In this document: piece after piece, positions 901 through 47,103 of the stretch
How the letters are laid out: each line of letters opens with the position of its first letter
How positions within the stretch are numbered: the stretch's first letter is position 1
From: Centroscyllium fabricii
Lineage: Eukaryota
Length of the DNA stretch: 64,000 nucleotides
NCBI GenBank assembly: GCA_051313645.2
Contig: JBNRSN020000013.1
Location: forward strand, 138,074,001-138,138,000
Direction of reading: 5' to 3'
Translations under genes and position numbers: made by a program
The notes under the pieces: generated by a model
The model's database searches: none
The model's input: the letters and a program-made list of their open reading frames with translations, nothing else
Told to the model about the DNA's origin: nothing

Positions 901-1141
901 CCCGTGCCGTGTGCGTGGCCGGCCTCTGCCGTATCAGGGTGGGAGACGGGGGCGCTTGTAGTCTACCCCCGGACCGCTGCTGGGTCGCGCTGCAACAGCG
1001 GCTTACCTTAGGCCATGGGATGGCTTTGGAGCTCTCACAGGCTGCGCTGTTGTGTCTGGAGCTGGGCGCTGGGGCCGATTTGCAGGCCCTGGCTTAGTGT
1101 CCCTTTTCGCAACATCTCTCACAGGTCGCGGTCCTCGCGGG

Positions 1142-1819
1142 TCATTTTGCTCGCGGATGCAGTCCCTGGCCGCAGAAGTAGCATTTTCTGTCCGACGGCT
1201 TCTGCGCCGTTGCCGCTGCCATTGTGGAGTTCTCGACCTGTCGTGGGGCCACCCAGGAATCGAGGGTGTCATGTGTGGCTTGGCCGCTATACGCCTCTAG
1301 CCTGCGGCGTGCTCCATCCACCGTGTTAGAGATGGAGATCGCCTCCTCCAGCGATAAAGTGTCTTTTTCCAGCAACCGCTGGCGGGTCTGGCTGGACATG
1401 ATCCCCGTCACGTAGGCATCTCGAATGAGGAGATTCGTCTCCTCCTGCGCCATTCGTGGCTGGCAGTCACAGGCCCGGGCGAGGGCTTGAAGCGCCAACA
1501 GATACTGTTCATTAGACTCACCGAGCCATTGTTGTCTGGTCGCCAGCACGTGTCTGGCATAGACCGAGTGGACCGGGCGCACGTAGCATGCCTTCAGTTT
1601 CTCCACGGCCTCTTCATACGTTGTTGCGCCGCGGATGAAGGAGTACACCCGGCTGGTGATCCTGGACGAGAGAACGTGGAGTTTGTTCTCGTCAGTCATC
1701 GCCTTGGCGGCCGCCATGTAGGCCTCAACAAGGCTGAACCAATGTTCAAACGTATTGGAGGTGTCTGGTTCCTGTGGATTGATATCCAGCTTTTCGGGTT
1801 TCACAGCGCCGCTTTCCAT
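1142..1819 (-). pseudogene. gag: Gypsy gag, truncated by a premature TGA inside the zinc knuckle
   Basis: Homologous to gag at 22195 and 28902 (YARHVLATR, LIRDAYVTG, RQRLLE, CYFCG). Confidence 0.88.
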
Positions 1820-1844
1820 TTTGAAAATTTAAAGTGATTAAAAT

Positions 1845-2126
1845 TGACGTATCGTCAATAAGACAAAGACGAGTAGTTACCTTAACTAGAGGGTTTTAAT
1901 CACTTTACAATGGAGCTAGTCTCCAGTCGAACATTGAGTGCAGAATGGATGGGGGCAGGTCAGGCCTCACCTATAAAGGCCCTCACCTGAGGGGAGGAGT
2001 TAGAGGTGTGGCTGACCTGACCTCGCGACAGTGTCATAATACAAACTATATACAAAGCACCCAGCCACTATACATGCTGGTCTGTAGTGTGCTCAACTAT
2101 ATACAATGGTATTCCTGATTACCACA
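1845..2126 (-). repeat. 5' LTR of Gypsy family A (282 bp)
   Basis: Starts TGTGGT, ends ACGTCA; TATA-like TTTATA and ATTAAA; homologous to LTRs at 14388-14627, 18561-18797 and 20380-20669. Confidence 0.92.
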
Positions 2127-3008
2127 GCCCCATGCACTGAATTTGGTAGAAAACACCTTACACACACTTACACAATACAGGTACATGTACTTTGCATGTC
2201 TATATTTACTCAACAACATTTCTATCCACCACCATTCAGTATCCAAGAAAGTAAAATACTCACAACAATCAAAGAACGCTCACATACTCTGCTTTTTCAC
2301 TTACCACTTTACCAATAAAGGTTAAAGTTCACATGCATACTTCGTGTGAATATGAGTATTGAGATCACATGCCCAACGACAGTATCTATTACTCATTTTT
2401 TTATTTATTAAACAGAAATTCAATTAGTCCCTCACATCTGGATTTCCAATTAGCCACATGGGCCTGAGTTAAAATTGCAGTCGGGTCTCAATGATGTCAT
2501 CAGGCCGCAACATGCATAGGTAAAGAAGAACTCTGTTGGCTCCGGGCACCTGTCTTTGCTGCCTGCTCAGGAGAGCAGGTTAAAATTGTAGGTGTTGCGA
2601 TCGTGACGGCTTTCAAACAGGTAAGAGCCAGGCCGATTTTAACTGCCCACCGGCCAGGTTTCTGCTGAGTGAATCGGATTAAACTCACCTGGTGTCCAGT
2701 GGTATTTTACCCAAGTGACCATTCTTTTTCACTGAGCAATCTATACGCCTCTGGAGGGTGGGACATCACATCTAAACTCAATCCTGCCCTCAACCAACAT
2801 CCAGCCATTATTGAGTAGGAATCAGTGATAGCAATTAGGAGTGTGCGTAGGTCAATGCTAGCACCCAACTGATACCTCAGCTGAGATTAGCTTAATTTCG
2901 CACAAACAAGGGCTAGGGCCGGGAACTTTTCTGGTCTGAATGACACAGTACCACACCAGCCAATACATGTAACCACTGAGTCATCAGTGGAACCAGTTGA
3001 AACTCTAA

Positions 3009-10325: not shown

Positions 10326-11291
10326 CTGTAGCAACAATTCTCCAAATCGCATTCCCTTCGAGCAATGCACATCACTGGGAGCACAAGATCACTGAATTTG
10401 CTCTTGTAGTTCATTGCACTGAATTAGCTATTGCTTACATACTGCTTTTCCTCTGGACCTTCTCCTGTTATTCCTTCAATGGGTGTTTCATATATTTTAT
10501 TCTTAGCTTCCCAAATTCTTGCAGAAACCAGTCGCACATTTTGACTGATTAGGAGTGACATTAAGAGTTCTCAAATGCTGCGTTCAGCTTGAAATATATA
10601 TTCTCAAACACCCACAAGCGCAGCCCATTCATGGAGAGCCACACTTCCAAATTCTCTTACACTCAGCCCATTGATGCACATCTCCATTCTCAAGTACCCT
10701 CATGCTTAACCCTTAAATACACTCACACTTTATTCATTCATAAAAAAGAATTCTCTCGATATCCTCATCTCAGACCTCATTCATAGAGATCGACACTTTC
10801 TAGCAGCTTCACACTCATTCCTTTCATAGATTCTGCTCTTTTTTTGCATGTACAGAAGTCATGTTTGGAAAAAGCCACTGTAATATCTAAATCTCCACCC
10901 AACGCAAACACTCCCACCCATCAAGCTTTTAAAATAGTACTTAACTAGTTCAGGAATGTCTCGGGACAATTGAAAATGCAATACCAATATATGAATTTAT
11001 TAAAATAGAGCAAGCAATATACGGGGAGTGACAACATTACTTGTACTCCTAGCTAAAACACAAACAAATTGAATGGATCACAAACTATGATTTCAGCTCA
11101 TAGGAGTCCATGTTGGTTTACAGCAAGGACAATGGTGCAGTAATGGTATTGTGGGAGGCTACGGTCTTCCGCGTAAAGAAATAGTCAACACAGCGAGCTA
11201 CAAGAAATAGGTCTTTACTCCAACTCTCACAATACAGTACTGAATTCGTAAAGCCCGCGAACCTGTGATGACTCATGGGTTGGTCACCTGC

Positions 11292-14195
11292 GGAGGGCCC
11301 CTACACACACACACACACTTCAGCCTCAGCCATTGTCAACCAGGCTAGGCCGCACACCCTATCAAATTCCATGATGGGGATTAAAGTGGACGGGCACATT
11401 ACTAACTGCCTGTTCGACACCGGAAGCACAGAGAGCTTCATCCACCCCGACACAGTGCGGCGCTACGCACTGCGGACCCTGCCCACGCGCTACCAAATCT
11501 CCCTTGCCTCAAAGTCCCACACAGCGGACGTCACCGACTACTGCTCCGTCACGCTCACGGTCAGGGACTGCGTGTACCGCAACTTTAAGCTGTACATCCT
11601 CCAGCAGTTGTGCGCCCCAGTCTTACTGGGACTGGATTTCCAGTGCCACCTGAAGAGCGTGACAATGGAGTTCGGCGGGACCCTGGCCCCCCTCACCGTC
11701 AGTAGCCGGGACAATCCCTTCCTAAAGTGGAGCCCGACCTGCGGCCTATCCACCCTGAAAGTCGACCCCCCCTCGCTGTTCGCCAACCTCGACCCCAACT
11801 GCAAACCTATTGCTACCAAGAGTCAGTGTTACAGTGCAGGGGACCGGGCATTTATCATGTCGGAAGTCGGGCGTATGCTGCAAGAGGGGATAATTGAGGC
11901 CAGCACTAGCCCCTGGCGGGCCCAGGTCGTAGTGGTTAAGACCGGCGAGAAACTGCGGATGGTCATTGATTACAGCCAGACAATTAACCGCTACACCAGG
12001 CTCGACGCCTACCCGCTTCCCCTCATCTCGGATATGGTTAACCAGATCGCCCAGTATACGGTCTTTTCAACAGTCGACCTTAAGTCGGCATATCACCAAC
12101 TCCCAATCCGGATATCCGACCGCCAGTACACCGCCTTCGAGGCGAACGGTCGGCTCTACCACTTCCTCCGGGTCCCCTTCGGTGTGACCAACGAGGTGTC
12201 CGTATTCCAAAGGGAGATGGACCGTATGGTTGATCAGAACGGGTTGCAGCCCACCTTCCCCTACCTGGACAACTTGACCATCTGCGGCCATGACCAGCAG
12301 GACCACGATGCCAACCTCGCAAAATTTCTCCACACGGCGAAACGGCTAGATCTCACGTACAATAAAGACAAGTGTGTCTTTAGTACAGATCGGCTCGCTA
12401 TCCTCGGATACGTGGTGGAAAACGGGGTCCTCGGCCCCGACCCACAGCGTATGCGTCCCCTACAGGAACTGCCCATACCTCACAACCCCAAAGCCCTGCG
12501 ATGTCTAGGATTTTTTTCCTATTACGCGCAATGGGTTCCCCAATTCGCGGATAAGGCCAGACCGCTCCTCAAGGCTGACGTCTTCCCCCTCTCGGTAGAA
12601 GCCCAAACGGCATTCGCCCGGATTAAGGAAGACATCATCAAGGCGACCATGCACGCCGTTGATGAGTCCATCCCTTTCCAGGTGGAGAGTGACGCTTCGG
12701 ACTTCCCCCATGCCGCCACCCTGAATCAGGCAGGCAGGCCCGTAGCGTTTTTCTCCCGGACCCTACAGGACCCGAAACTCGCCACTCAGCAGTGGAAAAG
12801 GAGGCCCAGGCCATCGTGGAGGCAGTGCGCTACTGGCGTCATTACCTGGCCGGTAAGCATTTTACCCTGCTCACCGACCAACGGTCGGTCGCGTTTATGT
12901 TTAACAATAAACAAAAGGGTAAAATCAAGAATGATAAGATCCTGCAGTGGCGGATCGAACTCTCGACTTACGAGTACGACATTCTTTACCGCCCAGGCAA
13001 ACTCAACGAACCCCCAGACGCACTGTCCAGGGGAACGTGCGCCAGCGCCCAGCTGGACCGGCTGAAGGACCTCCACGATCACCTCTGCCACCCAGGTGTC
13101 ACCAGACTCGCCCATTTCGTAAAATCCCGTAGCCTTCCCTACTCCATCACAGAGATTAAGGCTATGACCAGAGAGTGCCCTGTCTGTGCCGAGTGCAAAC
13201 CCCACTTTTACAGGCCAGACATGGCGCACGTCATCAAGGCCACCCGCCCCTTTGAACGTCTGAGCGTGGACTTCAAAGGTCCCCTCCCCTCCACTGACCG
13301 CAACTCGTACTTCCTCACGGTCGTGGACGAGTTCTCCCGCTTCCCCTTCGCCTTCCCCTGCCCAGATATGACGAGCGCAATGGTGATAAGACACTTCACC
13401 ACGCTGTTCGCCATTTTCGGTCTCCCCAGCTACATCCATAGCGACCGGGGGACGTCGTTCATGAGCGACGAACTGCGTCAATTTCTGCTTCAGAAAGGGG
13501 TTGCCTCAAGCAGAACAACCAGTTACAACCCCCGGGGGAACGGCCAGGTAGACAGGGAGAATGGGATCATCTGGAAGGCGGTCAACCTGGGCCTGAAGTC
13601 CAGAGGCCTTCCAGTTTCCCGTTGGCAGGAAGTCCTCCCAGACGCGCTCCACTCCATCCGCTCTCTGCTGTGTACGGCTACAAATGCTACACCTCACGAC
13701 CTGTTATTTTCCTTCCCCAGGAAGTCGACTGCGGGGACAGCACTCCCACCGTGGCTCACGACGCCGGGGCCGGTCTTACTTAGAAAACATGTCCGCGGCC
13801 ATAAGACCGACCCCCTGGTGGAAAAGGTGCAGCTGCTGCACGCCAACCCGCAGTATGCCTACGTGCAATTCCTGGACGGGCGCGAGGACACAGTTTCGAT
13901 CAGAGACCTGGCGCCCACCGGGAGCACTAGAGCAGAACCCCCGGTCGAGCCTCAGCCCGACCAACCACCATCCTCCGAACACTGGCCTGCATACCAACCA
14001 CCATCCACCGAACACTGGCCTACATACACACACACACCGGGGCCCTCGACGCTATCAGCTGACAACCCGGGGCTGGACACCACGCTGCAGGCACTGTTGC
14101 CGGAGGACCGACCCCGTCACCACAACCGGCACCAGCGCCGCTACCGGAACCCCGGCGGTCGTCAAGGCAGACACGACCACCGGAGAGACTTATAG
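11292..14195 (+). pseudogene. pol: Gypsy pol (protease, RT, RNase H, integrase), frameshifted near 12770
   Basis: LFDTGS protease; YLDN RT; ESDAS/EKEA/TD RNase H; HHCC and DDE integrase (VDFKGP, HSDRG). ORFs 11275-13065 and 12792-14195. Confidence 0.93.
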
Positions 14196-20669: not shown

Positions 20670-22194
20670 CGTAGCATGTGATTCATTACTTTGATTAAGG
20701 CCGTCTAAGTGCTTTGGCAGGAGAGGAAACCTGATTGGAGAAGTTCAAACATGGAGTTGAAGGAAAGATGGGCACGGATTTGCTAGTAAGATATCGGAGC
20801 TGGCCATGTACAGCGCTTATAAAACAACATCCCAGTAAGAGTCACCACCTTCAAGAGAGGAAGGGACAAAACTGGAAAAGACTGATGGATTAAAAAAAGG
20901 AGTGCACTTTATTTTTACACTTTATGTAAAGGAATCATTGTGCATGTATATATGTGAGTGGGGGGAAGGGGGTGTGTGGACCTGGGAAACCCCCCTCCCC
21001 CAAAATGGCAGACTGGCACTGGGGTTCTAGGCTGTGTGGATGGGCGGGCACCAGAGATATGCTGGTGGTGGTGCTGGCACCTACTGACCCCATGAATATT
21101 GGAAATTGGGCAAACTAGGATTATATTCCCTAGAGACGATAAAGGGAATTTATAGGGAACAATTCCTTCCTCTAAATGGAAACATCCAAAAGAAGGGTAC
21201 TTCGGGTTAGAAATCAGCATAGAATCATAGAATCATAGAAGATAGGAGCAGGAGTAGACCATTCAGCCCTTCGAGCCTGCTCCGCCATTCAATGAGATCA
21301 TGGCTGATCTTTAGCAAGCTAGTACCCCGTCCCCGCCTTTTCTCCATAACCTTTAATCCCTTTAACTTGAAGAAATATATCCAATTCCCTCTTGAATATG
21401 TTTAATGAACTGACCTCCACCGCCCTCTGTGGCAGGGAATTCCACAGGCCCACCACTCTCTGAGTGAAGAAATTCTTCCTCATGTCTGTCCTAAATGGTT
21501 TACCCCTTATCCTTAGACTGTGGCCCCTGGTTCTGGACTCACCCGCCATTGGAAACATTCTCTCTGAATCTAACCTGTCCAGACCTTTCAGAATTTTATA
21601 CGTCTCAATGAGATCGCCTCTCAATCTTCTAAACTCCAACGAGTACAAGCCCAGACTACACAATCTCTCCTCATAGGTCATTCCTGCCATTCCAGGAATC
21701 AGCCTGGTGAAACGCCGCTGCACTCCTTCCATGGCAAGAACATCCTTCCTCAGGCGAGGCGACCAAAACTGTACACAATACTCGAGGTGTGGTCTCACCA
21801 GTGCCTTGTACAGCTGCAGTAAGGTATCCTTGTTCCGATACTCGAACCCCCTTGATATGAAGTCCAACATACCATTTGCCTTCCTAACCGCCTGCTGCAC
21901 CTGCGTGCTCGCTGTGATAAACCATATATCACTGTATATAACGAATCACCATGTAATACTATGTAATACCTGTACGGGATCCCAGGAGCATACCTGGCGC
22001 CGCCCATGACTCCTCCCCCGCTGGAGGAGGTATATAAGTGACTGCCCCCATCCCCCATGCCATTCCGGGGACAGTCAGCCTCACTGTTGGATACTTGTGT
22101 ATCGTCATCATAGTTAATAAAAGCCTGATTATTCTAACCAACTATTCGACTCCGAAGACGTTATTGACGGTTACAATTTTATTAACTACTGGAA

Positions 22195-24692
22195 ATGGAT
22201 ACTACAATGTTGAAACCATCGGTGTTCGAAGTTGAACCCTGATCTTCTGGAGCATCAAACGCCTTCTCACACTGGCGAAATGTACTTGAAGGGTACATCA
22301 GAGCCAACGCGGCGGTCATACTGACCGAGGAGCAAAAACGGCGACTCCTCCACGCCCGGGTGGGCCCGCAAGTATATTCAATGATAGTGGACGCCCCATC
22401 GTTCCAAGAAGCCCTCAGGACCCTCGAGGCGGAATATAATCGGGCACCAAACAGAGTCCACGCGAGACATATACTCGCCACCCGAAAGCAACAGAATGGA
22501 GAGTCGAGTGTGCAGTTCCTAAGAGCCCTCAGAATTCTGGCACGGGACTGTGACTGCAGAGCGCAAACGGCCCTAGTGCATATGGAGAGCCTCATCAGGG
22601 ATGCCTATGTAACAGGCCTGAAATCGTACTATGCCAGGCAGAGACTGCTGGAACAGAATGGCCAAGACTTACAGGCCACTACAGACTTGGGACACGCGCT
22701 GGATAGCGCCTCTACGGACTTATCATCCTACTCAAGTAACTATACGGGCCCAGCCCCGCAATCTTGGACAGCGCTGGCGCAACGACCGCCAGATGAACTT
22801 CTCACAGCGGCCCACGCTAAAGCGAAATGCTACTTCTGTGGGCAACCACAGCATTCAAGACGCAGCTGCCCTGCTAAAGAAGCGATCTGCTCCAAGTGTG
22901 ACAAAAAGGGACACTATGCGAAGGTTTGCAAAGGCCCTAATGCTAAATCAAAACTGGGCAGCGCTGCGTGTGGAACAGGGGAGCAGCAATATCGGGCTCA
23001 CCCATCCCCCACTCGGCAGCACTCGTGGCAGCAACAGCGGCCATCTTGGACTCAACAGCGCAACACATGGCGGCAGCCATCTTGGGGAGCAGATCTGGAA
23101 GAATCTCCGGATCAAGATAACTACTCTCCGGATCAAGACATCCCGGAGGACCCGGTACTAGCATCCATGAACCTAGACCAGAGGAAGTTTCAGCCACTGG
23201 AGAGGTCGATGATGCCGGTGGAAGTCAATGGTGAAGAGGTGGTGTGCCTGTTCGATAGTGGGAGCACAGTAAGTTTTGTTCACCCAAATACTGTAAAGCG
23301 CCTCTCCCTTAAAATAACCCCTGCGCGCCAAAGAATATCTATGGCGTCCAAATCAGAATCCGCTGACGTCACTGGGCGCTGTATTGTAACGCTTAATGTA
23401 CAGGGCGCAATGTTCGATAATTTTAGCTTTTACGTGCTGCCGCAGCTCTGCGCCCACCTACTACTGGGACTGGATTTTCAGTGCCACCTTCGGAGCGTTA
23501 CCATGGCATTCGGCGGACCCCTTCCCCCTCTCACGGTCACAAACCGCTGCTCAAAGCGGCACCCCCTGTACACTACCTGTGGTCTCTCAACCCTTAAGGT
23601 TGCCCCTCCATCCCTCTTTGCCAACCTCACCCCAGACTGCAAGCCCGTCGCCACCAAGAGTAGGCGCTACAGTGCTGGGGACATGGTATTTATAAAATCT
23701 GAGGTGCAGCGCCTCCTAAAAGAAGGGGTCATAGAGGCCAGTAATAGCCCCTGGAGAGCACAGGTAGTGGTAGTAAAAACCGGAGAAAAGAATAGGATGG
23801 TAGTGGATTATAGCCAGACCATAAACCGGTTCACCCAACTAGATGCCTACCCTCTCCCTCGGATAGCGGACATGGTGAACCAAATTGCACAATTTAAAGT
23901 GTACTCCACTATCGATTTAAAATCTGCCTATCACCAACTCCCCATCCGCTCAGAGGACCGTCCTTATACAGCTTTTGAGGCTGACGGTCGCCTCTATCAC
24001 TTCCTTAGGGTTCCGTTTGGCGTCACAAACGGGGTCTCGGTCTTCCAGAGGGAGATGGACCGAATGGTTGATCAGTACAGGCTGCGAGCGACATTCCCGT
24101 ACCTTGATAATGTAACCATCTGCGGCCATGACCAGCAGGACCATAACGATAATCTCCAAAAATTTCTCCTTACGGCCAAAACCCTGAACCTCACATATAA
24201 CAAGGAGAAATGTGTGTTTAACACCACCCGCCTAGCCATCCTCGGCAGCGTGGTGGAGAATGGAGTCATCGGTCCAGACCCGGACCGCATGCGCCCCCTT
24301 ATGGGGCTTCCCATCCCCCACTCCCCCAAATCTCTTAAACGGATTTTGGGATTCTTTGCCTATTATGCCCAGTGGGTCCCCAATTATGCGGACAAAGCTC
24401 GCCCACTACTTAAAACGACCTCTTTTCCCCTTTCTGCAGAAGCCAACTCGGCATTCTGCAGAATCAAAAACGATATTGCCAAAGCCACGATGCACGCTGT
24501 GGATGAGTCCGTCCCATTCCAAGTGGAAAGCGATGCATCGGACTTTGCACTGGCCGCCACCCTTAATCAGGCGGGCAGACCCGTGGCCTTCTTTTCACGT
24601 ACCCTCCAAGGCCCCGAAACTCGCCATTCCTCAGTCGAAAAGGAGGCCCAGGCCATTGTTGAAGCAGTGCGGCACTGGAAGCACTACCTGGC
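22195..24692 (+). pseudogene. gag-pol: Family B gag-pol, 5' part (Gag, protease, RT, RNase H)
   Basis: ATG at 22195; single TGA at 22240-22242 (likely CGA>TGA); two CCHC knuckles, LFDSGS, YLDN, ESDAS; cut at HYLA by the nested element. Confidence 0.93.
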
Positions 24693-27600
24693 TGATACCA
24701 TCAATTACTCGAGTCTGAGAGCGAGTTAACATAGGCTTTAATAAACTTAGAACAAGCGTAAGGGATCACAGGTATCGTTAGTACAGTACAGTAGAGAGGA
24801 GGTCAGAACCCACGAGTGCTGACCTTTATACCCCCAGGGTCAGAGGCGTGGCCTACCCGAGGTCCTCCAGGTACAGGTCTCCCAAGTCTGGCTGGGCAAG
24901 AGTAGACACGCCCTAAGGCATGTACATACACATAGTTGGTGTTATAGCCAATATCACCACATTCACCCCCTGTTAAAGAATTTCAGTACCAGGGGGGGCA
25001 CAAACAATACCTAACATATGTACAGACAGTATTTACAAAGGTTCCGAGATGTTCCAAAAAAATTGTGGCCGCCTGTTCATGCCAGGTCACATTGTGCAGA
25101 CCAGGCGGTCTGGCTGGCGTCGCACCCTCGACGACCGTCTGAGCTGCTGGTCCTGCCGTTCGGTATCGGTCCCTGGGGAAGCCGAAGGAATATACGTTAG
25201 CAGCGCATCACCAGGGAATACGGCGGTATGGGTCGGTGGGGGGCTGGGCACGGGCTGCGATGTGGTAGGTGCCGGCTGGGCCCACGACGAGAGGAAGGGG
25301 GGTGGGGGCGGAGTTGTGGTCGCAGGGGCGCCTGCGGGCGCCAGGTCTTTAATAGAGACTGTGTCCTTCCTGCCATCAGGGAACTCCACATAGGCGTACT
25401 GCGGGTTAGCATGGAGGAGGAGTACCCTGTCGACCAGTGGGTCGGTCTTATAGTGCCGTACATGGTGCCGCAACAGTACTGGGCCCGGGGAGGCTAGCCA
25501 CGACGGCAGCGACATCCCCGAGACGGACTTCCTGGGGAAGGAAAACATCCGTTCGTGCGGCGTTGCGTTGGTCGCTGTACAAAGAAGCGACCGTACGGCG
25601 TGTAGAGCGTCCGAGAGAACCGCCTGCCAGCGTGAGGCTGGAAGGCCCCGGGACCTGAGTGCCAGGCGGACCGCCTTCCAGACAGTGCCATTCTCGCGCT
25701 CTACTTGGCCATTGCCCCGGGGGTTGTAGCTCGTTGTCCTGCTCGACGAGATTCCTCTCGCGAGTAGGAACTGGCGCAGTTCGTCGCTCATAAAAGCAGA
25801 CCCCCGGTCAGAGTGTATGAATGAGGGGAAGCCGAATATTGCGAATATCGGGGCGAGGGCGTTGATGACTGTGGCAGCAGTCATATCAGTGCAGGGTATC
25901 GCAAATGGGAAACGGGAGTATTCGTCCACGACTGTGAGGAAGTAGACATTCCTGTCGGTGGACGGGAGTGGGCCCTTAAAATCGATACTAAGGCGTTCGA
26001 AGGGCCGAGAGGACTTAATCAGGTGTGCCTTGTCCGGTCGGAAAAACTGCGGCTTGCATTCCGCACAGACCGGACAATCCCTGACTATCTCCCTAACCTC
26101 CGCAATACTATACGGTAGATTGCGGGCTTTGATAAAATGATAGAAGCGGGTGACCCCCGGGTGGCAGAGGTTATTATGCAGAGCCTGCAGTCTGCCCGCC
26201 TGCACGCTGGCGCAGGTCCCACGGGACAGTGCATCGGACGGCTCGTTGAGTCTACCTGGCCTGTACAAAATATCATAATTAAAGGTGGACAATTCGATCC
26301 TCCACCTCAAGATCTTATCGTTCTTAATTTTTCCCCGCTGTGTGTTACTAAACATAAATGCTACCGACCTCTGATCGGTGAGCAGGGTAAATTTTCTACC
26401 GGCCAGGTAGTGTCTCCAGTGGCGCACCGCTTCGATAATGGCTTGGGCCTCTTTTTCCACGGAGGAATGCCGTGCTTCCGAGCCCGAGAGGGTACGGGAA
26501 AAGAAGGCAACGGGTCTGCCTGCTTGGTTCAGGGTCGCCGCCAGGGCGAAGTCGGACGCGTCGCTCTCCACTTGGAAAGGCACGTCCTCATCAATGGCGG
26601 ACATTGCAGCTTTTACTATATCGGCTTTAAGTTGCTTAAAAGCCGTTAGTGCCGCTGCCGACAGGGGAAAAACAGTGGCCCGCATCAGAGGCCGGGCTTT
26701 GTCCGCAAATTTCGGGACCCACTGCGCGTAATACGCGAACAGCCCCATGCACCGCTTTAGAGCTTTGGGTGTCTTGGGAAGGGGATACTCAATCAGCGGG
26801 CGCATTCGGTCAGGGTCCGGGCCGATTAGCCCGTTTTCCACCACACAGCCCAAAATAGCCAGGCGTCTGGTGCGGAAAACACATTTTTCTTTGTTGTAGG
26901 TCAAATTCAGGGATTTGGCTGTTTTCAAAAATTTAGCGAGGTTCTCGTCGTGGTCCTCGTCCGAGTGGCCGCAGATAGTGACGTTATCTAGATAGGGAAA
27001 AGTGGCCCTGAGCCCGTGTTCGTCTACCATTCTATCCATTTCCCTCTGGAAGACGGACACTCCGTTCGTCACTCCGAAGGGAACCCGAAGGAACTGGTAG
27101 AGGCGACCATCCGCTTCGAAAGCGGTGTAGGGGCGCTCCTCTCTGAGGATTGGGACCTGGTGATATGCCGCTTTAAGGTCTATAGTCGAATAGACTTTGT
27201 ATTGGGCAATTTCATTTACCATGTCCGAGATCCGGGGAAGGGGGTACGCATCGAGGAGTGTAAACCGGTTTATGGTCTGACTGTAGTCGACCACCATCCT
27301 GTTCTTCTCCCCCGTCTTTACCACTACTACTTGGGCCCTCCAGGGGCTGCGGCTGGCTTCAATCACCCCCTCTGCCAACAGTCGCTTCACCTCGGTGCCA
27401 ATAAACGCCCGGTCTGCAGCACTATACCGCCTGCTCTTTGAGGCAATCGGTGCGCAGTCCGGCGTGAGGTTCGCGAACAGTTTCGGGGGTGAGATCCGTA
27501 AAGTGGTGAGCCCACAAAGCGGGCGCTCACGGGGGGTACTCGACTCGACCGTCAGGGGTGGGAGAGGGCCGCCGTATGCCAAAGTGACACTCTGCAGGTG

Positions 27601-29205
27601 GCTCTGGAAATCGAGCCCCAATAACATTGGCGCGCACAAGTGGGGTAACACAAACAGTTTAAAATTACAGTATTTTACCCCGCGAACTACAAGTGATACT
27701 ACGCAACACCCCACGGCCTGCGCCGATTCTGAGTCCGCCGCCAAGGCAATGCGTTTTAAACAGGGGCGGATCGACAGGTGAAGACGGTCAACAGTCTCGG
27801 GGGAAATAAAACTATCAGTACTACCCGTATCAAATAAACAGTTACAGTTTTGTCCGTTTACCTGGACGTCCATCATTGATTTCTGCAGTTCATGGGGTTT
27901 TGATTGGTCCAAAATGATGGACGCCAGCACGGTTGGTGAGTCGTCTTCATCCGAATATTCGGGGTCGGAGTCAAGTCGAAGACTCTCAAAATGGCCGCTG
28001 CCTCGTGGTGATGAACTAAAATGGCCGCTCCTCCTAGCTGTGGCCTCAAGATGGCCGCCGCCTCGTGGTGCTCCCTCGCGGTCATCTACCTCCGTGTAGT
28101 AGGAACGTGGTGCCGCTCTCGCTCCGCTGCAGATGGGGGCTGCCTTCTTTTTCTGCCCTGTTGCGCGGCACATCGCGGCATAGTGCCCCTTCTTTCCACA
28201 CTCCGAGCACGTAGCATCTTTGGCTGGGCAGCGCAGTCTAGAGTGCCTAGCTTTTCCGCAAAAGAAACACTTTTGGTTGGTTTCAGGCCTGCTTCTTCCT
28301 GCCGCTGCCGTTAGCGCTGGGGTAGGAGTTGGGGCTGGGGATGCCCACGTAGGCGCGCTTGGTTGGCCATACGTGGTGGATCTCCGATCTGCATTGTCCA
28401 GATTTACAATCAGGGAGGCTGCTTCTTTTAATGTTAGCTCATCCCGTTCTAGCAGTCGGGCCCTGATATATGGGGAGTATACCCCTCTTACCAGAGCGTC
28501 CAGTGCCAGTTCGTTGTAGTGTTCGTCCGCCGTCAGGGGGCCAGGGGCGCAATCTCGGGTCAGCGCACAAATTTCTTTCACGAATTTGGCGCCCGGTTCC
28601 TCGGCGCTCTGGGCTCTCTGAGTCAACACGTGCCTTGAGTGAACAGCGTTGGCTGCTGGCACAAATTGTTCTTTCAGTTTCTTCATGGCCTGTTCGTAAT
28701 CCGACTCCCCTTCGATGAGGTGGTAATGGTCAGCACTGATTCTGCAGTGTAGAATTCGGCTCTTCTGCTGATCAGTTGAAGCAGTCTCTTTCACTTCGTC
28801 GATATAGCTCCTCAGCTGCTGTTCCCAGTGTTTATACCGGCGTTCGGCATCGGGAGCAGTCGCATCAATTTCCAAGATCGGGACAGCCAGAATTCGGTCC
28901 ATTTTGGATTTTAGCGACGATCTAAGTTTATTAAATTGATACCATCAATTACTCGAGTCTGAGAGCGAGTTAACATAGGCTTTAATAAACTTAGAACAAG
29001 CGTAAGGGATCACAGGTATCGTTAGTACAGTACAGTAGAGAGGAGGTCAGAACCCACGAGTGCTGACCTTTATACCCCCAGGGTCAGAGGCGTGGCCTAC
29101 CCGAGGTCCTCCAGGTACAGGTCTCCCAAGTCTGGCTGGGCAAGAGTAGACACGCCCTAAGGCATGTACATACACATAGTTGGTGTTATAGCCAATATCA
29201 CCACA
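24693..29205 (-). mobile_element. Intact full-length Gypsy LTR retrotransposon, family C (4.5 kb), nested in family B
   Basis: 269-bp LTRs 24693-24961 and 28937-29205, identical by eye; 5-bp TSD CTGGC; one uninterrupted ORF. Confidence 0.97.
25087..28902 (-). CDS. gag-pol: Gag-Pol polyprotein, 1271 aa (Gag, two zinc knuckles, protease, RT, RNase H, integrase)
   Basis: CFFCGKARHSRLRC and CSECGKKGHYAAMC; LFDTGS; FPYLDNV; ESDAS; LHNNLCHPG...CPVC; IDFKGP, HSDRG, ERENG. Confidence 0.96.
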   Translation of the reverse strand: MDRILAVPILEIDATAPDAERRYKHWEQQLRSYIDEVKETASTDQQKSRILHCRISADHYHLIEGESDYEQAMKKLKEQFVPAANAVHSRHVLTQRAQSAEEPGAKFVKEICALTRDCAPGPLTADEHYNELALDALVRGVYSPYIRARLLERDELTLKEAASLIVNLDNADRRSTTYGQPSAPTWASPAPTPTPALTAAAGRSRPETNQKCFFCGKARHSRLRCPAKDATCSECGKKGHYAAMCRATGQKKKAAPICSGARAAPRSYYTEVDDREGAPRGGGHLEATARRSGHFSSSPRGSGHFESLRLDSDPEYSDEDDSPTVLASIILDQSKPHELQKSMMDVQVNGQNCNCLFDTGSTDSFISPETVDRLHLSIRPCLKRIALAADSESAQAVGCCVVSLVVRGVKYCNFKLFVLPHLCAPMLLGLDFQSHLQSVTLAYGGPLPPLTVESSTPRERPLCGLTTLRISPPKLFANLTPDCAPIASKSRRYSAADRAFIGTEVKRLLAEGVIEASRSPWRAQVVVVKTGEKNRMVVDYSQTINRFTLLDAYPLPRISDMVNEIAQYKVYSTIDLKAAYHQVPILREERPYTAFEADGRLYQFLRVPFGVTNGVSVFQREMDRMVDEHGLRATFPYLDNVTICGHSDEDHDENLAKFLKTAKSLNLTYNKEKCVFRTRRLAILGCVVENGLIGPDPDRMRPLIEYPLPKTPKALKRCMGLFAYYAQWVPKFADKARPLMRATVFPLSAAALTAFKQLKADIVKAAMSAIDEDVPFQVESDASDFALAATLNQAGRPVAFFSRTLSGSEARHSSVEKEAQAIIEAVRHWRHYLAGRKFTLLTDQRSVAFMFSNTQRGKIKNDKILRWRIELSTFNYDILYRPGRLNEPSDALSRGTCASVQAGRLQALHNNLCHPGVTRFYHFIKARNLPYSIAEVREIVRDCPVCAECKPQFFRPDKAHLIKSSRPFERLSIDFKGPLPSTDRNVYFLTVVDEYSRFPFAIPCTDMTAATVINALAPIFAIFGFPSFIHSDRGSAFMSDELRQFLLARGISSSRTTSYNPRGNGQVERENGTVWKAVRLALRSRGLPASRWQAVLSDALHAVRSLLCTATNATPHERMFSFPRKSVSGMSLPSWLASPGPVLLRHHVRHYKTDPLVDRVLLLHANPQYAYVEFPDGRKDTVSIKDLAPAGAPATTTPPPPPFLSSWAQPAPTTSQPVPSPPPTHTAVFPGDALLTYIPSASPGTDTERQDQQLRRSSRVRRQPDRLVCTM

Positions 29206-29210
29206 CTGGC

Positions 29211-30702
29211 CGGCAAGCGTTTTACCCTGTTGACTGACCAACGCTCAGTCGCTTTTATGTTCAACAACAAAGAGCGGGGTAAGATCAAGAACGACAAGAT
29301 ACTAAGGTGGCGAATTGAACTATCGGCATTCAATTATGATATCTTGTACCGGCCCGGGAAATTTAACGAACCCCCAGACGCCCTATCACGCGGTACCTGT
29401 GCCAGCGCACAGGCTGACCGTCTCCAAACCCTCCACAATGACCTCTGCCACCCGGGGGTCACCAGGTTGGTTCACTTCGTGAAGTCCCGCAACCTCCCCT
29501 ACTCCATCGAGGAGGTCAAGACCATGACCAGCAATTGCCAGGTCTGCGCGGAGTGCAAGCCGCACTTCTACCGGCCAGACCGGGCGCACTTGATCAAAGC
29601 CACTCGCCCCTTTGAACGACTCAGTGTCGATTTTAAAGGGCCCCTTCCCTCAGCCAACAGGAATGTCTATTTCCTCAACGTTATAGATGAGTACTCCCGC
29701 TTCCCTTTCGCCATCCCCTGCCAGGATATGACCTCCGCCACCATCACCAAAGCCCTCAGTAGCATCTTCTCCCTGTTCGGGTACCCGAACTATATCCATA
29801 GTGACCGGGGGGCCTCTTTCATGAGCGACGAGCTGCGTCAGTTTCTGCTAGCGAAAGGCATCGCGACTAGCAGGACTACCAGCTACAACCCCCGGGGGAA
29901 CGGACAGGTAGAGAGAGAGAACGCCACAGTCTGGAAAGCCATCCAGTTAGCCCTAAAGTCCAAAGACCTCCCAGTCACCCGATGGCAAGACGTTCTCCCT
30001 GAAGCGCTCCACTCTATCCGGTCCCTCCTGTGTACTGCCACCAATGACACCCCTCACGAAAGACTTTTTGCCTTCCCCAGGAAGTCAGCTTCCGGGACCT
30101 CGCTACCATCGTGGCTACTATCTCCGGGACCGGTCCTGCTGCGGAAGCATGTGAGGGGACATAAGGCAGATCCCCTAGTCGAACAGGTCCACCTCCTGCA
30201 CGCCAATCCCCAGTACGCTTACATAGCATACCCCGACGGGAGGGAGGACACCGTGTCCATAAAGGACCTAGCCCCAGCAGGAGTCCCAAAACCCAGCCCC
30301 GCCAAGCAACATGATCTCCCAAAAAGCCCCGCCAAGCAGCCCGCGCACCCAAAAAGCCCTGTGACGCTCCCCGCGCCGCCGAGGCTGAAGGACACGCCCC
30401 AACACGTGGGCCCAGTGCCCCAGTATGTCCACAAGGCACCTGCGAGCAGCACGAACGAGCACCAAGCTTGGATCCACAAAGCGCGCCCCCTAGAGTCAGA
30501 GGACGAAGGAGAGACCGTGCCCCCTGCTGCCAGAATCAGGGCACCACCGCCACACAGCAGTGATATAACCACCATCAGTCGACCGGCATCAAGGGAACAA
30601 CCGACACAACCAGCCACTCCACGACAACGAACACCACAGGCACCACCAGCGGTGCGAAGATCAGCGCGGATAACAAAACCGCCTGATAGACTGAATTTAT
30701 AG
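29211..30702 (+). pseudogene. pol: Family B pol, 3' part (RNase H end, integrase, Pro-rich tail)
   Basis: Resumes (A)GKRFTLLTD in frame after the TSD; HHCC and DDE motifs; ends RRSARITKPPDRLNL. Confidence 0.93.
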
Positions 30703-33329
30703 TCATAAGAACTCTGATTGTGTATATATTTTTTCTTGTTGTTGACGAATCATCATGTAATTATTAGTTTTTTTCACCTCGCTGTATCTCCGTGTTTTGT
30801 TCACCCCGCTATACTTTTGTTTTTAAAGAAGGGGTGAATGTGATAAACCATATATCACTGTATATAACGAATCACCATGTAATACTATGTAATACCTGTA
30901 CGGGATCCCAGGAGCATACCTGGCGCCGCCCATGACTCCTCCCCCGCTGGAGGAGGTATATAAGTGACTGCCCCCATCCCCCATGCCATTCCGGGGACAG
31001 TCAGCCTCACTGTTGGATACTTGTGTATCGTCATCGTAGTTAATAAAAGCCTGATTATTCTAACCAACTATTCGACTCCGAAGACGTTATTGACGGTTAC
31101 ACTCGCCTTCAGCGACTGGTGCACAAGAACACCCAGGTCTCTCTGCACCTCCCCATCTCCCAATCTATTGCCATTTAAGTAGTAATCTGCCCTCCTGTTT
31201 TTGCCCCCAAAGTGGATAACCTCACATTTATCCACATTGTAGTGCATCTGCCATCTATCTGCCCAGTCCCCCAACTTATCCAAATCGCCCTGTAACTTCC
31301 TGACACCCTCTTCTGAGCCTGCCTCCCCTCCTAGTTTGGTGTCGTCTGCAAATTTGGAGATATTACATTCAATTCCCTGATCCAGATCATTAATATATAT
31401 TGTAAACAGCTGAGGTCCCAGGACAGACCCCTGCGGTACTCCACTAGTCACCGGCTGCCACCCAGAAAACGAGCCGTTAATTCCAACTCTCTGTTTTCTG
31501 TCTGCCAACCAGTTCTCTATCCACATCAAAACTTTGCCCCCAATCCCATGAGCCTTAATTTTACATGCTAATCTTTTATGTGGAACCTTATCGAAAGCTT
31601 TCTGGAAGTCAAGGTACACCACATCTACTGGCTCTCCCCCATCTATTTTCCGAGTTACTTCCTCAAAGAATTCCAATAGATTAGTTAAACATGATTTACC
31701 TTTTGTAAACCCATGTTGACTCTGTCCGATCTCATCCCTACTTGTCAAATGCTCCGAGATTACATCCTTGATGATGGACTCAAGCATTTTGCCCACTACT
31801 GATGTAAGGCTTACTGGTCTATAATTCCCTGCTTTCTCTCTGCCCCCCTTTTTAAATAGTGGGGTAACATTAGCCACCCTCCAATCCGTGGGTACTGATC
31901 CAGAGTCTATTGAGTTCTGGAAAATGATCCTTAAAGCACCCGCTATTTCCAGGGCTACCTCTTTAAGTACCCTAGGATGTAGATTATCAGGTCCTGGGGA
32001 TTTGTCGGCCTTCAATCCCTTCAACTTCCCCAAAACCATCTCCCTAGAAATAATGATATCTGTCAGCTCCTCCCTTGCCTTGGACCCTATGTTCGCTGCT
32101 ATCCCTGGGAGGTTGCTTGTGTCCTCCTTTGTGAAGACAGTACCAAAATATGAGTTTAGTTGGTCTGCCATTTCTTTATTCCCCATTATATATTGCCCTG
32201 AATCGGACTGCAAGGGACCGACTTGGGATTTTACCATGTTGGGATGAATCCTTGAATGAATAGGCCCGAGACTCATCCACTATTGGGTCTCGGGCCTCAT
32301 TTGTATCAGACACTTGCTGGGCGCCTCAGGCAGTAAACCGTAAAAGAGGATTTGAAGTTGGGGCCGCTATGCCATTGGCAGGGTCTTGTGGGGATGGGGG
32401 CGGGGCGGGGGGGGGAGTGATCGGAAGAGAGAGGGAGGGGGTAACTGGTAGAGAAGGGCAATCAAGGAGTGAGGAAAACTCAGGAGGAAGGTCAAGGTAC
32501 TGATTGGGAGGGGGGACAAAGTCGTGCGCACGGGGGAGGGTGGGACTAAGCGGTGACTGGCAGCGACCCGTGGTTTTAATCTGGGGTCTGGAGATTAGTA
32601 TTTTTTAAAAACCTTTTGGCAGTGGCCCTGTAAGGCCTGGCACCAACTACGTTCATGGAAAATGAATTTGGTAAAGGGACGTCAAACAGGCGCTCGGCCT
32701 CTTATTTGCATATGAAAAAGCACTAAAGCCGTTTCAGGCACAGGCCCTGGACGCCTCTTTTGATACCTGTATCAGTATGGTGGGCAGCGCATTACCAGCT
32801 CAGGATGCGCGCGTACGCGCCCCCCCCCCCCTCCCGCCATATTGGAAGATTTGGAGCTCGTTTTCTGCCTGTAAAATGGGCACGGCATCAACAAATTTCC
32901 AGGCCCTAATCTTGAAACTGGAGCGTAGCTGGTTAAAAGTGAATGCGGAAAGCAAACATCTTGACACAAAGAGGATGTGAATTGCACTCCTCCTGAAGGC
33001 CAACACTGCAGAATCAACGGAGATATTTAAACAGGAGATAGATACTTTCCTGGGTAGTAAGAAATTCTTCCCCAAACAACAAAGCACCTATATTTGGTAC
33101 GACGCATTTCCCAAATTATTCCACCAGATTCAGTGATAGAAACAGGACTGGCTCATTGAGCCTACTCTACAATTTTGATAGTAACAATAGCTGTTTAAGT
33201 TTGAAGTCCCAATTCCCTGCCGTTTCTCAATATCCTTTACTACCCAGGTAAGTATCCTTGTTGGTAAGAAAGCATTGGAAGCAATAGAGAAAATGCAGTC
33301 AGTGTACCTAGTAGGGGCAGGGAATATTG

Positions 33330-36834: not shown

Positions 36835-37945
36835 GATTGGCGCTGTACTGGCAGTTGACCTCACCCTCCAGGATCCAAGGCAAAGGAGTACAGGCAACGT
36901 GTAAGACTGGGACATGAGGGAGGAGGAGGGCCATGAGGGCTCTCAACAGGAAGCCTTACCCTCTGAGGGTATTCTGACAGCACTTCTCATATCTCCAATT
37001 AAGCGAGGAGCAGTGTATTAGAAGGCTTCGCTTCACCAAGGAGGTGGTCACAAAACTCTGCCACCTCCTGCAACCAGACCTTGAGCCTCAGATCAGGACA
37101 ACCATGGCTCTCCCAGTGGCAGTCAAGGTCACTGTTGCCCTAAATTTCTTCAACAGCGAATCCGTCCAGACTGCAACAGGAGACATAGGGAACATCTCGC
37201 AGCTCACCATCTATCGCTGCATCCAGGAGGTCACAGAGGCTCTCTACAGAAGGAGAAGCGACTACATTTCCTTCCCCATCACCAGGGAGAAGCAGGACAA
37301 GCATACATGTGGCTTTGCCAGGATAGCGGGATTTCCTATGGTGCATTGCACCTACGTGGCTTTTCGGGCATCGCATAACAATCCTGACATCTTCCGTAAC
37401 CGCACAGGCTACCAATCACTTAATGTGCAGTTGATGTGGGATAACACACGGCGAATTCTCAAAATGAATGCCCGCTATCCTAGCAGCAGCCACGATGCCT
37501 TAATCCTGTGCCAGCATACTTCTAGCCACCACGTCAAGTTTGTGGTTAGCTGCTCGGACACAAGGGCTATCCACTCTCCACCTAGCTCATAATTCCCCTC
37601 CACAGCCCCAATACTCCTGCCCAGCAATCACATAATGAGAGCCATGCTGTGACCAGGAACATCATCAAGCAGACCATCGGCATACTCAAGTAATGGTTCC
37701 GCTGCCTTAACCGCTCAGGAGGAACCCTCCAGTACTCGGCTGAGAAAGTGTCCCATTTCGTTGTTGTCTGCTGCATACTCCATAACTTGGCCATCATGAG
37801 GGGCCAGCTCAGCCCTTGCTACCAGGGATTGCGGGACCACCTCAGGAGGAGGAAGAGGAAGATGATGAGGAGGAGGGGGAGGAGGAACAGGAGCAAGGGA
37901 GGAGGCAGCCATTCAGTCAGCCTCATCAGACTGCGGTTCCAATAA
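36835..37945 (+). pseudogene. Harbinger (HARBI1-like) DDE transposase
   Basis: ALPVAVKVTVALNFF, GFARIAGFP, NRTGYQSLNVQ, YPSSSHDA, CCILHNLA; multiple frameshifts and stops. Confidence 0.88.
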
Positions 37946-42918: not shown

Positions 42919-45900
42919 CTAGTCATCGGGAATGGAAGGCTCATCAGCGTCTGGGGGCTGCTGTGTAAGTGCGAGGTGTCTCCGGTTCCTGCGAACAATC
43001 TGGCCCTGGATATCAACCAGATACAATCTTGGGGTGTTGGCCTGTCCTTGCAAAATGCCTCTTTTGTGGGAGTCCTGTATCCACACATAGTCACCCCGAA
43101 GGAGTGGACACAAGGGCTTAGCTCTGTGGCGCCTGTTAAAGTTGGCCTGTTGTCTTAGTTTAGATTGTTTGTCCTTGTCTGTAAAATTCTGGAGGTCGGG
43201 CCAGCCTGGGGTCAGGAGTGATGGCATAGTTGGCACGGTTGTACGAAGTTTCCTGCCTTGTAGCAACTCAGCAGGGCTGAATCCGCTAGAAAGAGGTGTG
43301 GAGCGGTATGCAAGGAATGGGCGGCACGGTGGCATAGTGGTTAGCAATGTTGCCTTACACCACTAGACACCGGGGTTCAAATCCAGCCTCGGGTACTATC
43401 TGTCTGGAGTTTGCACATTCTCCCCGTGTCTGCGTGGATTTCCTCTGGGTGCTCCGGTTTCCTCCCACAGTCCAAAAATGTGCGGGTTAGGTTGATTGGC
43501 CAGGATAAATTGACCCTTAGTGTGAGGGGGATTAAATATGTGGGGTTACGGGCATAGGGTGGGATATGTGTTGGTGCAGGCTCAATAGGGATATGGGGAC
43601 AAGGCAGGGACAGGGTACTGGGTTTGGATGATCAGCCATGATCTCATTGAAATGGCGGAGCAGGCTCGAAGGGCCGAATGGCCTACTCCTGCTCCTATCT
43701 TCTATGTTTCTATGAGTGCCTGGTATGGGTCAGGTGACTTTTTAAAAAGCTGTTTGTCTGTCTGGACAGCGCGCTCGGCAGCCCCATTGCTTTGAAGATA
43801 CAGAGGGCTGGATGTGACATGGGTGAAGTCCCAGCTGTTGGCAAATGAGCGAAAGGTGACCGAGGCAAATTGGGGGCCATTATCTGTTCGGACCAGCAGT
43901 GGGACCCCTAGGTGGGCAAAGCAAGATTTCATACACTCAACAACTGCATGTGTGGTGGTGGAGAAAAGCTTGATAACTTCAATGACCTTAGTGAAGTAGT
44001 CAAACATTACCAGGTAAGTTGTTAACCAAATGAAATAGATCAGCCCCAACCTTCTGCCATGGGCCCTCAGGGGTGTCATCTGTAATTAATGGTTCTAGTG
44101 GTTGTTGTCTCAATTGGGCACAGCTTGGGCACTGTTGTACTTTACGTTGTAGTTGACCACTTAATCCAGGTCACCAGACAGAATATCTGGCTTGTGCTCT
44201 GCATTTTCTGATGCCTTGATGGCCATCATGCAGTTTGTCCAGAATGTCTTTCTGCATTTATGCTGGAATGACCAACCAGCACCCTTGTAGCAGCAATCCT
44301 TGTGCAATAGTGAGGTCACCTGAAAGGTCTAATAGCGTTGTCACATTTCGCATGATCTGGCCAGTCCTCATGGCAGTATGTGAAGACCTGATGAAGTAGT
44401 TCATCTGTTTCCTATTCTTGCGGATGTGCAGCCAGGCGTTTCTCGGTAATGGGCAGTGCAGTGAGTATTGAGTGTACATAATTCTCTATGCACTGCACCT
44501 CAGAGGAAGCATCCCCCGGCGGCTGGTAGGGAGATCTGGAGAGGACGTCGGCAGTTGCTAGGCTCTTCCCTGGCACATGTGATATAGTGAAGTGAAAGTG
44601 CATGAGTCGCATCCGAAAGCGCTGAATGCAGGGGGACAACTCGTCCAGGTTTTTAGATCCCAATAGTGTAAGGAGAGGCTTGTGATCTGTTTTGACCTGG
44701 AATGTCATGCCTATTAGAAAGTCTCGAAAGCGCTCACACGCCCATGTAATGGCCAGGGCCTCTTTTTCAATCTGCGCACAGCACTGCTCGGTTTTTGAAA
44801 GGGCTCGTGAAGCATAAGCTACAGGGCGCACGTCAATGTGGGTCTCTTTTGTAAAAGGATTGCACCCAAGCCAAACTTTAGTGAGTGCATTGGGGTCATA
44901 CAGTGCACGGCCTGGCAGGGTGTTTAGCTCCGTTTTTATCTCAGTGAAAGCTTGGGACTGCTGGGGTCCCCAATACCATGAGGTCTGCCTGTTGAGGAGA
45001 TCCCGGAGTGGCTTGGTTTTATCGGCTAGATGGGGTATGTATTTGCCCAAGTGATTGACCAAGCCCATGAAGCGGCGCGTTTCAGCTACATTCCTTGCCA
45101 TGGCCATATGTGTGAGGGCCTTGACTTTGTCAGGATCTGCTCTGACACCGGTCCCGTCAATGACCTGGCCGAGAAACTTTACCTGTGTTTTGGCGAATTC
45201 ACATTTGGAGTTAAGAGTAAGTGCAGCTTGCTGTAGTCTACTGAGTATTGCCAACAGTCGCTCATCATGCTGTTCTTGGCTTGCACCAAACACCAACACA
45301 TCATCCATTTGGCATAAGACACCATCAAATCCCTCAAGGAGGCGGGACATGCAGCGCTGGAAATGCTCAGGGGCGGAGGATATTCTAAAGGGCAGTCTGT
45401 GGAAACAGTAATGTCCGAATGGCGTGATGAACGTGGCAAGATGTTTTGACTCCTCTGTCAAGGGTAGTTGCCAGAAACCAGATTGAGCGTCAAGCTTTGT
45501 AAAAACCTTTGCATCTTTCAGCTGCCCCAGAGTGTGTTCAACGCAGGGTAAGAGATGCAGCTCTCTACAGACACTTTCATTGAGTTTTGTTAGGTCTACT
45601 CAGATTCTGATTTTTACGTTGGGTTTTGGGACTACAACCATTCCGGAGCACCAGGATGTGGGTTCCTCAACTCTTGCAATTATCCCCAGTTGCTCCATGT
45701 GGGTGAGTTCCTCCTTAACGTTGGTCATAAGGGGGAGCGAGACACGTCGGGGTGTAGAGAGAGCAAAAGGTTTGGCCTCCAGCTTGAGGTGAATGTGATA
45801 CTCCTCCTGCAGTCGCCCAATGCCTTGAAACAGTCTGGGGAACTGCTGTCTGACCTCCCGTTCGAGATCTGTAAATACTGTCTCTGCTACTTGTGGGTCC

Positions 45901-47103
45901 AACCTGGACACCAGACGCAGGGATGGCGGGGCGACTGAGGAACGCTGTCCGTAGATCACATACCACATACACAACCTGCTTTGTAAACCATGGACCACGG
46001 GTCAGGGTAGCTGAAAATTTTCCTCTGATATTCAACGGGACTTGACCAGGCCCCTGAAGAATCTTAGAGGTGCTCTGAAGAGCCTCTAGACCTAGGTCGT
46101 TGTAGAGGCACTCCGGGATGACAGTGACATCAGCCCCTGTATCGATTTTGAATTCAGTCATGTGACCACACAGGCTTAGGGTGATGGTCCACGGCTGCTC
46201 CTGCCTATTTCCAATTGACTCCAAGAATGCTGTCTCATTGTCGTAGACCTCTGATATTTCAGCAACCGCAGGTGTGGATCAGCAAACTGCAGCAAAATGT
46301 CCTTTTTTCTGGCAATACCTGCAGCTAACATCTTTGGCTGGACAGATTTGTCTATTGTGTGTACTCCGGCCACACCATCTGCAACACCACTTTTGTGCTT
46401 GCAAATGTGTTCCAGGTTGAGTTCCAGTGCGAGGCCTCTGTGCACATTCACATGAGTCAGTTTGTCTTGATTTGGTAGAAAAATGTTTTAGGGAACCTGA
46501 TTGTTGGGGGGCACTTATGGTTTCAATGGACCCCTCCTCCTCATTACTACCTTTCTGAAGCATTGATTGCTGTTTCTTTATTGTTTCACTTTGGAAAACC
46601 TGTATTTTTGCTTTGTCAACTGTGCGGTCTGGATCCATCTGTAATTTTCCAGAGAGTTTAAGATCCCTTAGTCCAACAATCAATCTGTCACGAATTAGTT
46701 CATCCCGCATAGCTCCATATTTACAGTGTTCGATGAGCTCAAATAGCGATTTGATGAAGCTATCACTCGATTCCTCCCTCTCCTGCATGCGCCTATGGAA
46801 TCTTGTGCGTTCGAATATCAAATTCCTCCGCAGGATGAAATGATTAAACAACTCTGTTTTAACTGTGTCATAGCTTTTCAGTTGATCAGCCGTAATATTC
46901 CTGCACCGGAAGATTGCTTCAGCCTCCGCTTCCATGTAATATAATAGCATATTGACCTGTTTTTCCTGTGCCAGTTTATCAAAGCCCGAAGCCTGTCTGA
47001 AACGTTCAAATCTGCTGATCCACAACGGCTACTCTTCCGGCCGTGTAAAATCAAATTCGGAGGGGGGAGAAATCTGAAAGAATGCAGGACTTTGAGTGGC
47101 CAT
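42919..47103 (-). pseudogene. gag-pol: gag-pol, multiply frameshifted
   Basis: Gag WISRFERFRQASG; protease KIDTGAD; RT QMDDVLVFG; RNase H EKEALA/TDHKPL; integrase TDNGPQF/SNGAAER. Confidence 0.92.
43318..43714 (+). mobile_element. HE1-type V-SINE inserted in the integrase region
   Basis: Full head, V-domain and tail. Confidence 0.9.

Follow-up and report, generated by a model that had tools for sequence, protein, structure and literature searches.

Can a reverse transcriptase (RT) that carries asparagine at the second aspartate of its YxDD motif still copy its own element? In the window, by which we mean the whole 64-kb stretch of DNA analyzed here, codons read from the sequence give YLDN at all three RT sites, as the original prediction had claimed: TAC CTG GAC AAC in element A (12262–12273, plus strand), TAC CTT GAT AAT in element B (24100–24111, plus strand) and TAT CTA GAT AAC in element C (26994–26983, minus strand), with AAC, AAT and AAC, respectively, as the Asn codon. 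The three motifs share the context TFPYLDN(L/V)TICGH-xxx-DH, in which three residues, rather than the two originally described, precede DH.

What the second YxDD aspartate does has long been an open point in RT chemistry. Retroviral RTs require it, and to that extent the original view that both aspartates are catalytic holds; in Ty1 and Ty3, however, it is dispensable in vitro and essential in vivo. The Ty1 D211N enzyme is reported to keep polymerase activity in vitro, with kpol reduced 223-fold and a preference for Mn, while transposition is lost; suppressors in RNase H give partial rescue (PMC2148107). For Ty3, D214N is described as active in vitro with low processivity and lethal in vivo, and D151N and D213N as giving no polymerization in vitro (PMC5371799). 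There are also natural precedents. The BEL/Pao elements Cer7–Cer12 and Atlas contain YVDN, their activity being described as "to be determined" (PMC554778, PMC9094657), and the RNA-dependent RNA polymerases (RdRps) of Mononegavirales (GDN) and birnaviruses, which are natural active polymerases, have Asn for the second motif C Asp (PMC4634563). The window elements are a new instance of this known substitution, not new chemistry, and the original prediction overrated how surprising YLDN is.

An intact Ty3/Gypsy element with an incomplete aspartate triad

Element C, which reads on the minus strand, has all the parts of a complete LTR retrotransposon. Its 5′ LTR (28937–29205; TG...CA) and 3′ LTR (24693–24961), each 269 bp, are identical (0 mismatches), the 5-bp target-site duplication (TSD) CTGGC lies at 24688–24692 and 29206–29210, and a polypurine tract occupies 24962–24971. 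One open frame (25087–28944, first Met at 28902) encodes gag-PR-RT-RH-IN, with Pfam matches to protease, RT, RNase H and integrase in that order and, across the scanned ORF (all but its last 13 residues; E 0.001), no chromodomain or env match. The claim of an intact ORF with identical LTRs is thus borne out, and the LTRs, TSD, polypurine tract and PR-RT-RH-IN order make element C a Ty3/Gypsy LTR retrotransposon. On the question of BEL/Pao versus Gypsy, the only models to match are RVT_1 and those of Gypsy-type RNase H and protease, and we rejected BEL/Pao membership since the RT motifs match Cigr1 and not the Dan-clade BEL rows.

By sequence, the best solved relative of element C is Ty3 RT (E 3e-50), in which the catalytic YLDD aligns with the YLDN of the window RT. 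Counting residues from 28944, the motif A aspartate is D589 (STIDLKAAYHQ; 27178–27180, minus strand), the first motif C aspartate is D653 (26988–26986) and the Asn is N654 (26985–26983), leaving the canonical three-Asp site incomplete only at its last member. In RNase H (26233–26562, minus strand), D795, E832, D857 and D904 are intact, as judged from the Pfam match and alignment. An AlphaFold model of the RT, computed for the protein alone without metals or nucleic acid, has a normal RT fold (pLDDT 92.9), closest in structure to the CaMV, Ty3 and MMLV RTs; YLDN is predicted to lie at the β-hairpin turn between strands 179–182 and 185–190 of the model.

Element C interrupts element B, a member of the same clade, within RNase H (24688–29210). 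Element B (21913–31101, plus strand) has 263-bp LTRs at 21913–22175 and 30839–31101 that differ by 1 mismatch, and the TSD CTCGC, so that both nested elements have young LTR pairs. The pol of element A is split over two plus-strand frames (11272–13065 and 12693–14195), and no 5′ LTR could be assigned to it in the window.

Sequencing runs labeled as six different organisms, together with unlabeled and fish-gut runs, contain 0.4–0.8 of the words sampled from element C (window 24600–29300), which could reflect close relatives or transfer between species.

YxDN is common in a Cigr-1-like clade

With the RT-RNase H region as query, 1474 homologs passed among 8000 scored candidates. The 120 best homologs listed comprise 94 with YxDN, 25 with YxDD and 1 with YLNK, and because YxDN makes up 94 of 120, these sequences indicate that the recurrence of YLDN is far beyond chance. 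Named homologs come from sharks and rays, a sea anemone (cnidarian), a damselfly (insect), a whipworm (nematode) and a tunicate, and the host of the window elements is itself probably a shark or ray. A search of representative proteins returned 150, of which 148 gave 198 alignments covering the motif; at 45% identity or above the motif ended in DN in 48, DD in 43 and other residues in 3, and below 45% in DD in 103, with 1 gap and no N. Among 90 DNA loci, fed in part by a search from which the best 80 of 500 were taken, 58 had DN, 17 DD and 2 other residues, and 13 lacked coverage of the motif.

For trees we used 266 rows: those 263 of 270 proteins that had an ungapped motif and 200 or more aligned residues, and the 3 window rows. 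The last two motif C residues in the 221 ingroup rows are DN in 141, DD in 76 and other in 4, with neither E nor S ever at position 654; all 45 outgroup RTs have D there. The predominance of YLDD that the original prediction had set against itself is not what this clade shows.

Which clade is this? The Cigr1 reference RT row combines PWRAQ, DYS-QT, DLRSAYHQ, PFGVTNG and PDPER with YLDD (PMC8220671, supplement file 4). Among the 221 ingroup rows PWRAQ is found in 175, DYS-QT in 186 and PFGVTNG in 166 (range for all five, 107–186), and none of the five occurs in any of the 45 outgroup rows; three of them (PWRAQ, DYS-QT and PFGVTNG) have exact matches in element C. We accordingly assign the window elements and their homologs to the Cigr-1 clade of Ty3/Gypsy, an assignment made on motifs, the trees having been built without Cigr1. 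A first guess, the Mag clade, on whose LTRs and tRNA primer-binding sites (PBSs) PMC3601003 and PMC3286476 provide background, was dropped once the Cigr1 row was compared. The Cigr1 element of Ciona intestinalis shares PWRAQ, DYS-QT, PFGVTNG and DxxSAYHQ with the ingroup but is itself YLDD, whereas most relatives examined here are YxDN (PMC8220671). The clade has been published as small, formerly a single Ciona element to which about 15 mollusc families were added (PMC6238403); the 1474 homologs found here among the 8000 scored candidates span several animal groups.

The substitution recurs elsewhere in Gypsy as well. Among the strings of PMC8220671 supplement 4 are 5 YLDN versus 62 YLDD, and the tubeworm Gypsy rows LLGY63, LLGY64 and LLGY108, which lie outside the Cigr-1-like clade, show YLDN. 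In the literature we found no report of YxDN in Gypsy or the Cigr-1 clade, nor of self-priming in the latter; the original Cigr-1 paper and the repeat databases GyDB and Repbase may already note either. Scans of viral contigs gave no relatives of the elements, and the ESM Atlas gave generic RT/RNase H clusters only. Retrotransposons of this clade, of animal type, also occur in contigs filed as bacterial MAGs (L081–L090; P0012, P0042), where they are likely host contamination.

Asp and Asn have switched repeatedly

On the RT trees, D and N rows are interleaved. Parsimony requires 23 changes among D/N rows, or 26 if the four odd motifs are counted as non-N, and the starred branches force at least 14 switches (shuffled mean, 88). 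Monophyly of N was rejected (p-AU 8e-5, random subset of 34 rows). Rooted on D, parsimony gives 3–5 gains of N and 18–20 N-to-D reversions, counts that rest on the FastTree topology and on sampling around an N query; the excess of reversions may mean that D is mildly favored or may come from that sampling.

Elements A, B and C fall within one all-N subclade (15 rows with support 100* in one tree; 17 rows, 17/17 N, in another) whose named members come from sharks and rays. The three window copies therefore represent one origin of N, not three. The original prediction had drawn them from divergent families; they are indeed divergent, with saturated synonymous sites (pS 0.72–0.83), but they do not sample separate origins.

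The original prediction also allowed for compensation elsewhere in the enzyme. In 915 column-state tests over 13 independent pairs, a comparison of low power, no residue co-switched with D/N; the best test (0.2 versus 4.4, for V640/I) was not significant. N806 and T587, candidates on raw association, were not upheld in the phylogenetically paired tests. The closest D/N sisters are 84–88% identical over the RT core and have no common second change in the motif regions. Since no residue co-switches, whatever compensation there is probably spans the clade and predates the D/N switches. Differences fixed in the ingroup in or near RT motifs are Q538, S555, T557, T626, G628, V629, A593 and T656, which include DYSQT for DYRxL (S555/T557) and NGV for NAP (T626/G628/V629). 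These residues are candidates for a permissive background and as such are clade markers only; BEL/Pao and some further Gypsy rows show YxDN but lack these residues.

RTs with Asn are under constraint

Is YLDN a step in decay? Of 214 ingroup rows, 212 retain the motif A Asp, and the four RNase H DEDD positions are conserved in 180/182, 174/176, 166/167 and 156/158 rows. Because 654 is DN in 141 and DD in 76 of 221 rows, with 4 exceptions, and the other catalytic residues are kept, the position is not free: it is Asp or Asn and almost never anything else. The Asn codon itself alternates between AAT and AAC among N loci. Purifying selection on the RT core was strong in eight N-N locus pairs (dN/dS 0.034–0.091) and between A and C (0.069; A-B and B-C are saturated); three D-D pairs gave 0.08–0.22, and two N-N pairs were higher, at 0.33 (L064/L075) and 0.42 (L084/L085). 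In three metagenome N pairs the RT, with pN of 0.026–0.05 versus 0.037–0.073 for integrase, is at least as conserved as integrase, and conservation of the two is similar in the window pairs.

N stands at the motif position in each of the 24 loci retrieved from one other assembly; five of these (L006, L007, L012, L015 and L016) combine open frames of more than 1200 codons with LTRs of at least 99% identity. The 1944 contigs of run X11 yielded no listed variant at position 26985 (threshold, at least 2%), a weak point since contigs drop rare variants and show presence, not absence. The codon at 26985 is covered by one contig each in runs X1 and X15, and run X16 gave no coverage. Because of the purifying selection, the intact young N copies, the 24/24 loci and, weakly, the lack of a listed variant, these data argue against decay and against mobilization in trans. 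The original reading of a naturally variant active site agrees with them.

A self-complementary PBS accompanies both Asp and Asn

In Tf1, Tj1 and sushi, the PBS is complementary to a site in the element's own LTR (PMC4600332, PMC6317226). The same is true here. In element C, the PBS-position sequence at 28921–28935 (minus strand), the predicted self-priming site, is complementary at 15/15 positions to 28981–28995 (minus strand) inside the LTR, an arm ending in the polyA-like hexamer ATTAAA (fold z = −4.1). The corresponding sequence of element B (22177–22188, plus strand) is complementary at 12/12 positions to LTR 22111–22122, with a fold z of only −1.6. The region is covered in 56 of 92 elements; when PBS-LTR pairing was scored in these against 20 shuffles, it beat all 20 in 49: 40 of 44 with N, 7 of 10 with D and both of those with an unscored motif. 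In the window and in loci L001–L088 the self-complementary PBS begins about 1 nt beyond the CA that closes the LTR, and the LTR arm usually ends in an AATAAA/ATTAAA-like hexamer. The PBS and arm sequences differ between families, with pairing preserved. There are no tRNA genes in the 64-kb window.

Because it accompanies both N (40/44) and D (7/10), the self-complementary PBS is a clade trait independent of D/N. We predict that these elements prime their own reverse transcription, as Tf1 does. This would extend predicted self-priming to a non-chromovirus animal Gypsy clade. Tf1 and sushi differ from these elements in being chromoviruses, and Tf1 has YMDD (alignment of PMC8220671); element C lacks a chromodomain match and its arm ends in the polyA-like hexamer. 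The PBS may be a more interesting feature than YLDN.

Discussion

We consider it probable that the YLDN RT is a conserved functional variant, in which two aspartates serve catalysis and a third, accessory position switches back and forth between Asp and Asn within a lineage that permits either. Such an enzyme is likely active and likely copies its own element. D589 and D653 would hold the two metals, and position 654 would be an accessory site at which shape and hydrogen bonding, but not charge, matter, with only Asp or the isosteric Asn tolerated. The tolerance in vivo, absent in Ty1 and Ty3, would probably come from a clade-wide background fixed before the switches, for which the ingroup-fixed residues listed above are candidates; within it, D and N would be near-interchangeable, and the self-primed start of reverse transcription would not depend on which is present. 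Against an active enzyme stand the block to Ty1 and Ty3 transposition by the same change and the 223-fold fall in Ty1 kpol (PMC2148107, PMC5371799), as well as the two N-N pairs with dN/dS of 0.33 and 0.42.

It is also possible, though improbable, that Asn is an adaptive tuning, one that slows the polymerase or shifts its metal use and so keeps it in step with RNase H or restrains its activity in the host, as proposed for birnavirus RdRp. The persistence of N across saturated synonymous divergence fits such a role, as do the mapping of Ty1 D211N suppressors to RNase H (PMC2148107), the greater efficiency of the birnavirus enzyme when its Asn is changed to Asp (PMC4634563) and the enrichment of RNase H N806 in N rows (0.85 versus 0.16). 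However, the N806 association is mostly gone in independent pairs (most of the 13 show no difference, and it lies outside the top 22 of 915 tests), and reversions to D are frequent, some founding multi-member clades. Far less credible is the originally proposed tie between Asn and priming, for example to accept the self-primer end. Among the matches found, N occurs only in the clade where self-complementary PBSs are the rule, but D elements have the same PBS, self-priming Tf1 is YMDD, and YxDN is present in BEL/Pao and in the tubeworm rows outside the clade, so that an obligatory link is largely refuted.

Could the YLDN RT instead be dead and its copies mobilized in trans by YLDD helpers? The lethality of D-to-N for Ty1 and Ty3 transposition and the existence of D members in the clade would allow this, yet N RTs and integrase are under equal purifying selection, the shark and ray subclade is all N (17/17), and the run X11 contigs, which show presence and not absence, list no D-restoring variant at 26985 at 2% or above; we regard helper-dependent copies as very improbable. 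We give hardly any credence to recurrent mutation (CpG decay of GAC-GAY) as the source of Asn, or to its recoding back to Asp on the RNA by A-to-I editing. D and N are one transition apart, 10 of 16 D loci have GAC-GAY codons, and editing would explain the excess of N-to-D changes. Nonetheless, entire clades inherit N, with AAT and AAC codons both in use, and edited genomic RNA would be expected to yield D progeny, quickly erasing N.

The conserved functional variant that we favor can be set beside known systems. BEL/Pao elements with YVDN (Cer7–Cer12, Atlas and the Dan clade) share a natural Asp-to-Asn change at the same position in intact elements (FYVDN rows; PMC554778, PMC9094657), but they belong to another superfamily, so their Asn has an independent origin, and interchange of D and N among close relatives is a Cigr-1-like feature. 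Ty1 D211N and Ty3 D214N have the same substitution and cannot transpose, whereas N is here the common wild type with signs of recent insertion. The viral RdRps are RNA-dependent RNA polymerases in which Asn is fixed (and required in Mononegavirales) rather than toggling. For annotation, YxDN should not be taken for a dead RT. The clade also offers a natural experiment: with its many independent D/N switches and its sister enzymes of 85–88% RT-core identity, one can ask why some RTs need the third carboxylate in vivo and others do not.

More speculatively, and we think it rather doubtful, a remodeled template/primer grip evolved in the Cigr-1 lineage (DYSQT, NGV, Q538, T656) may have made the third carboxylate dispensable in vivo, yielding a two-aspartate RT that arose alongside an independent origin of Tf1-like self-priming, with D/N switching as a reversible control on the speed of transposition. 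If so, comparing natural sister enzymes would reveal how evolution got around the block to transposition seen in Ty1 D211N and Ty3 D214N.

Other features of the window

A fourth, partial copy at 1–2200 (minus strand) is related to element A (91% over 374 nt) and contains a gag with a frame change, an LTR and, on inspection by eye, a sequence at the PBS position that can pair with a site in the LTR. The Gypsy element at 44412–47028 (minus strand) is broken, is unrelated to the others and has QMDD in place of YxDD. The ORF at 36978–37592 (minus strand) appears to resemble a Harbinger/PIF-type nuclease.
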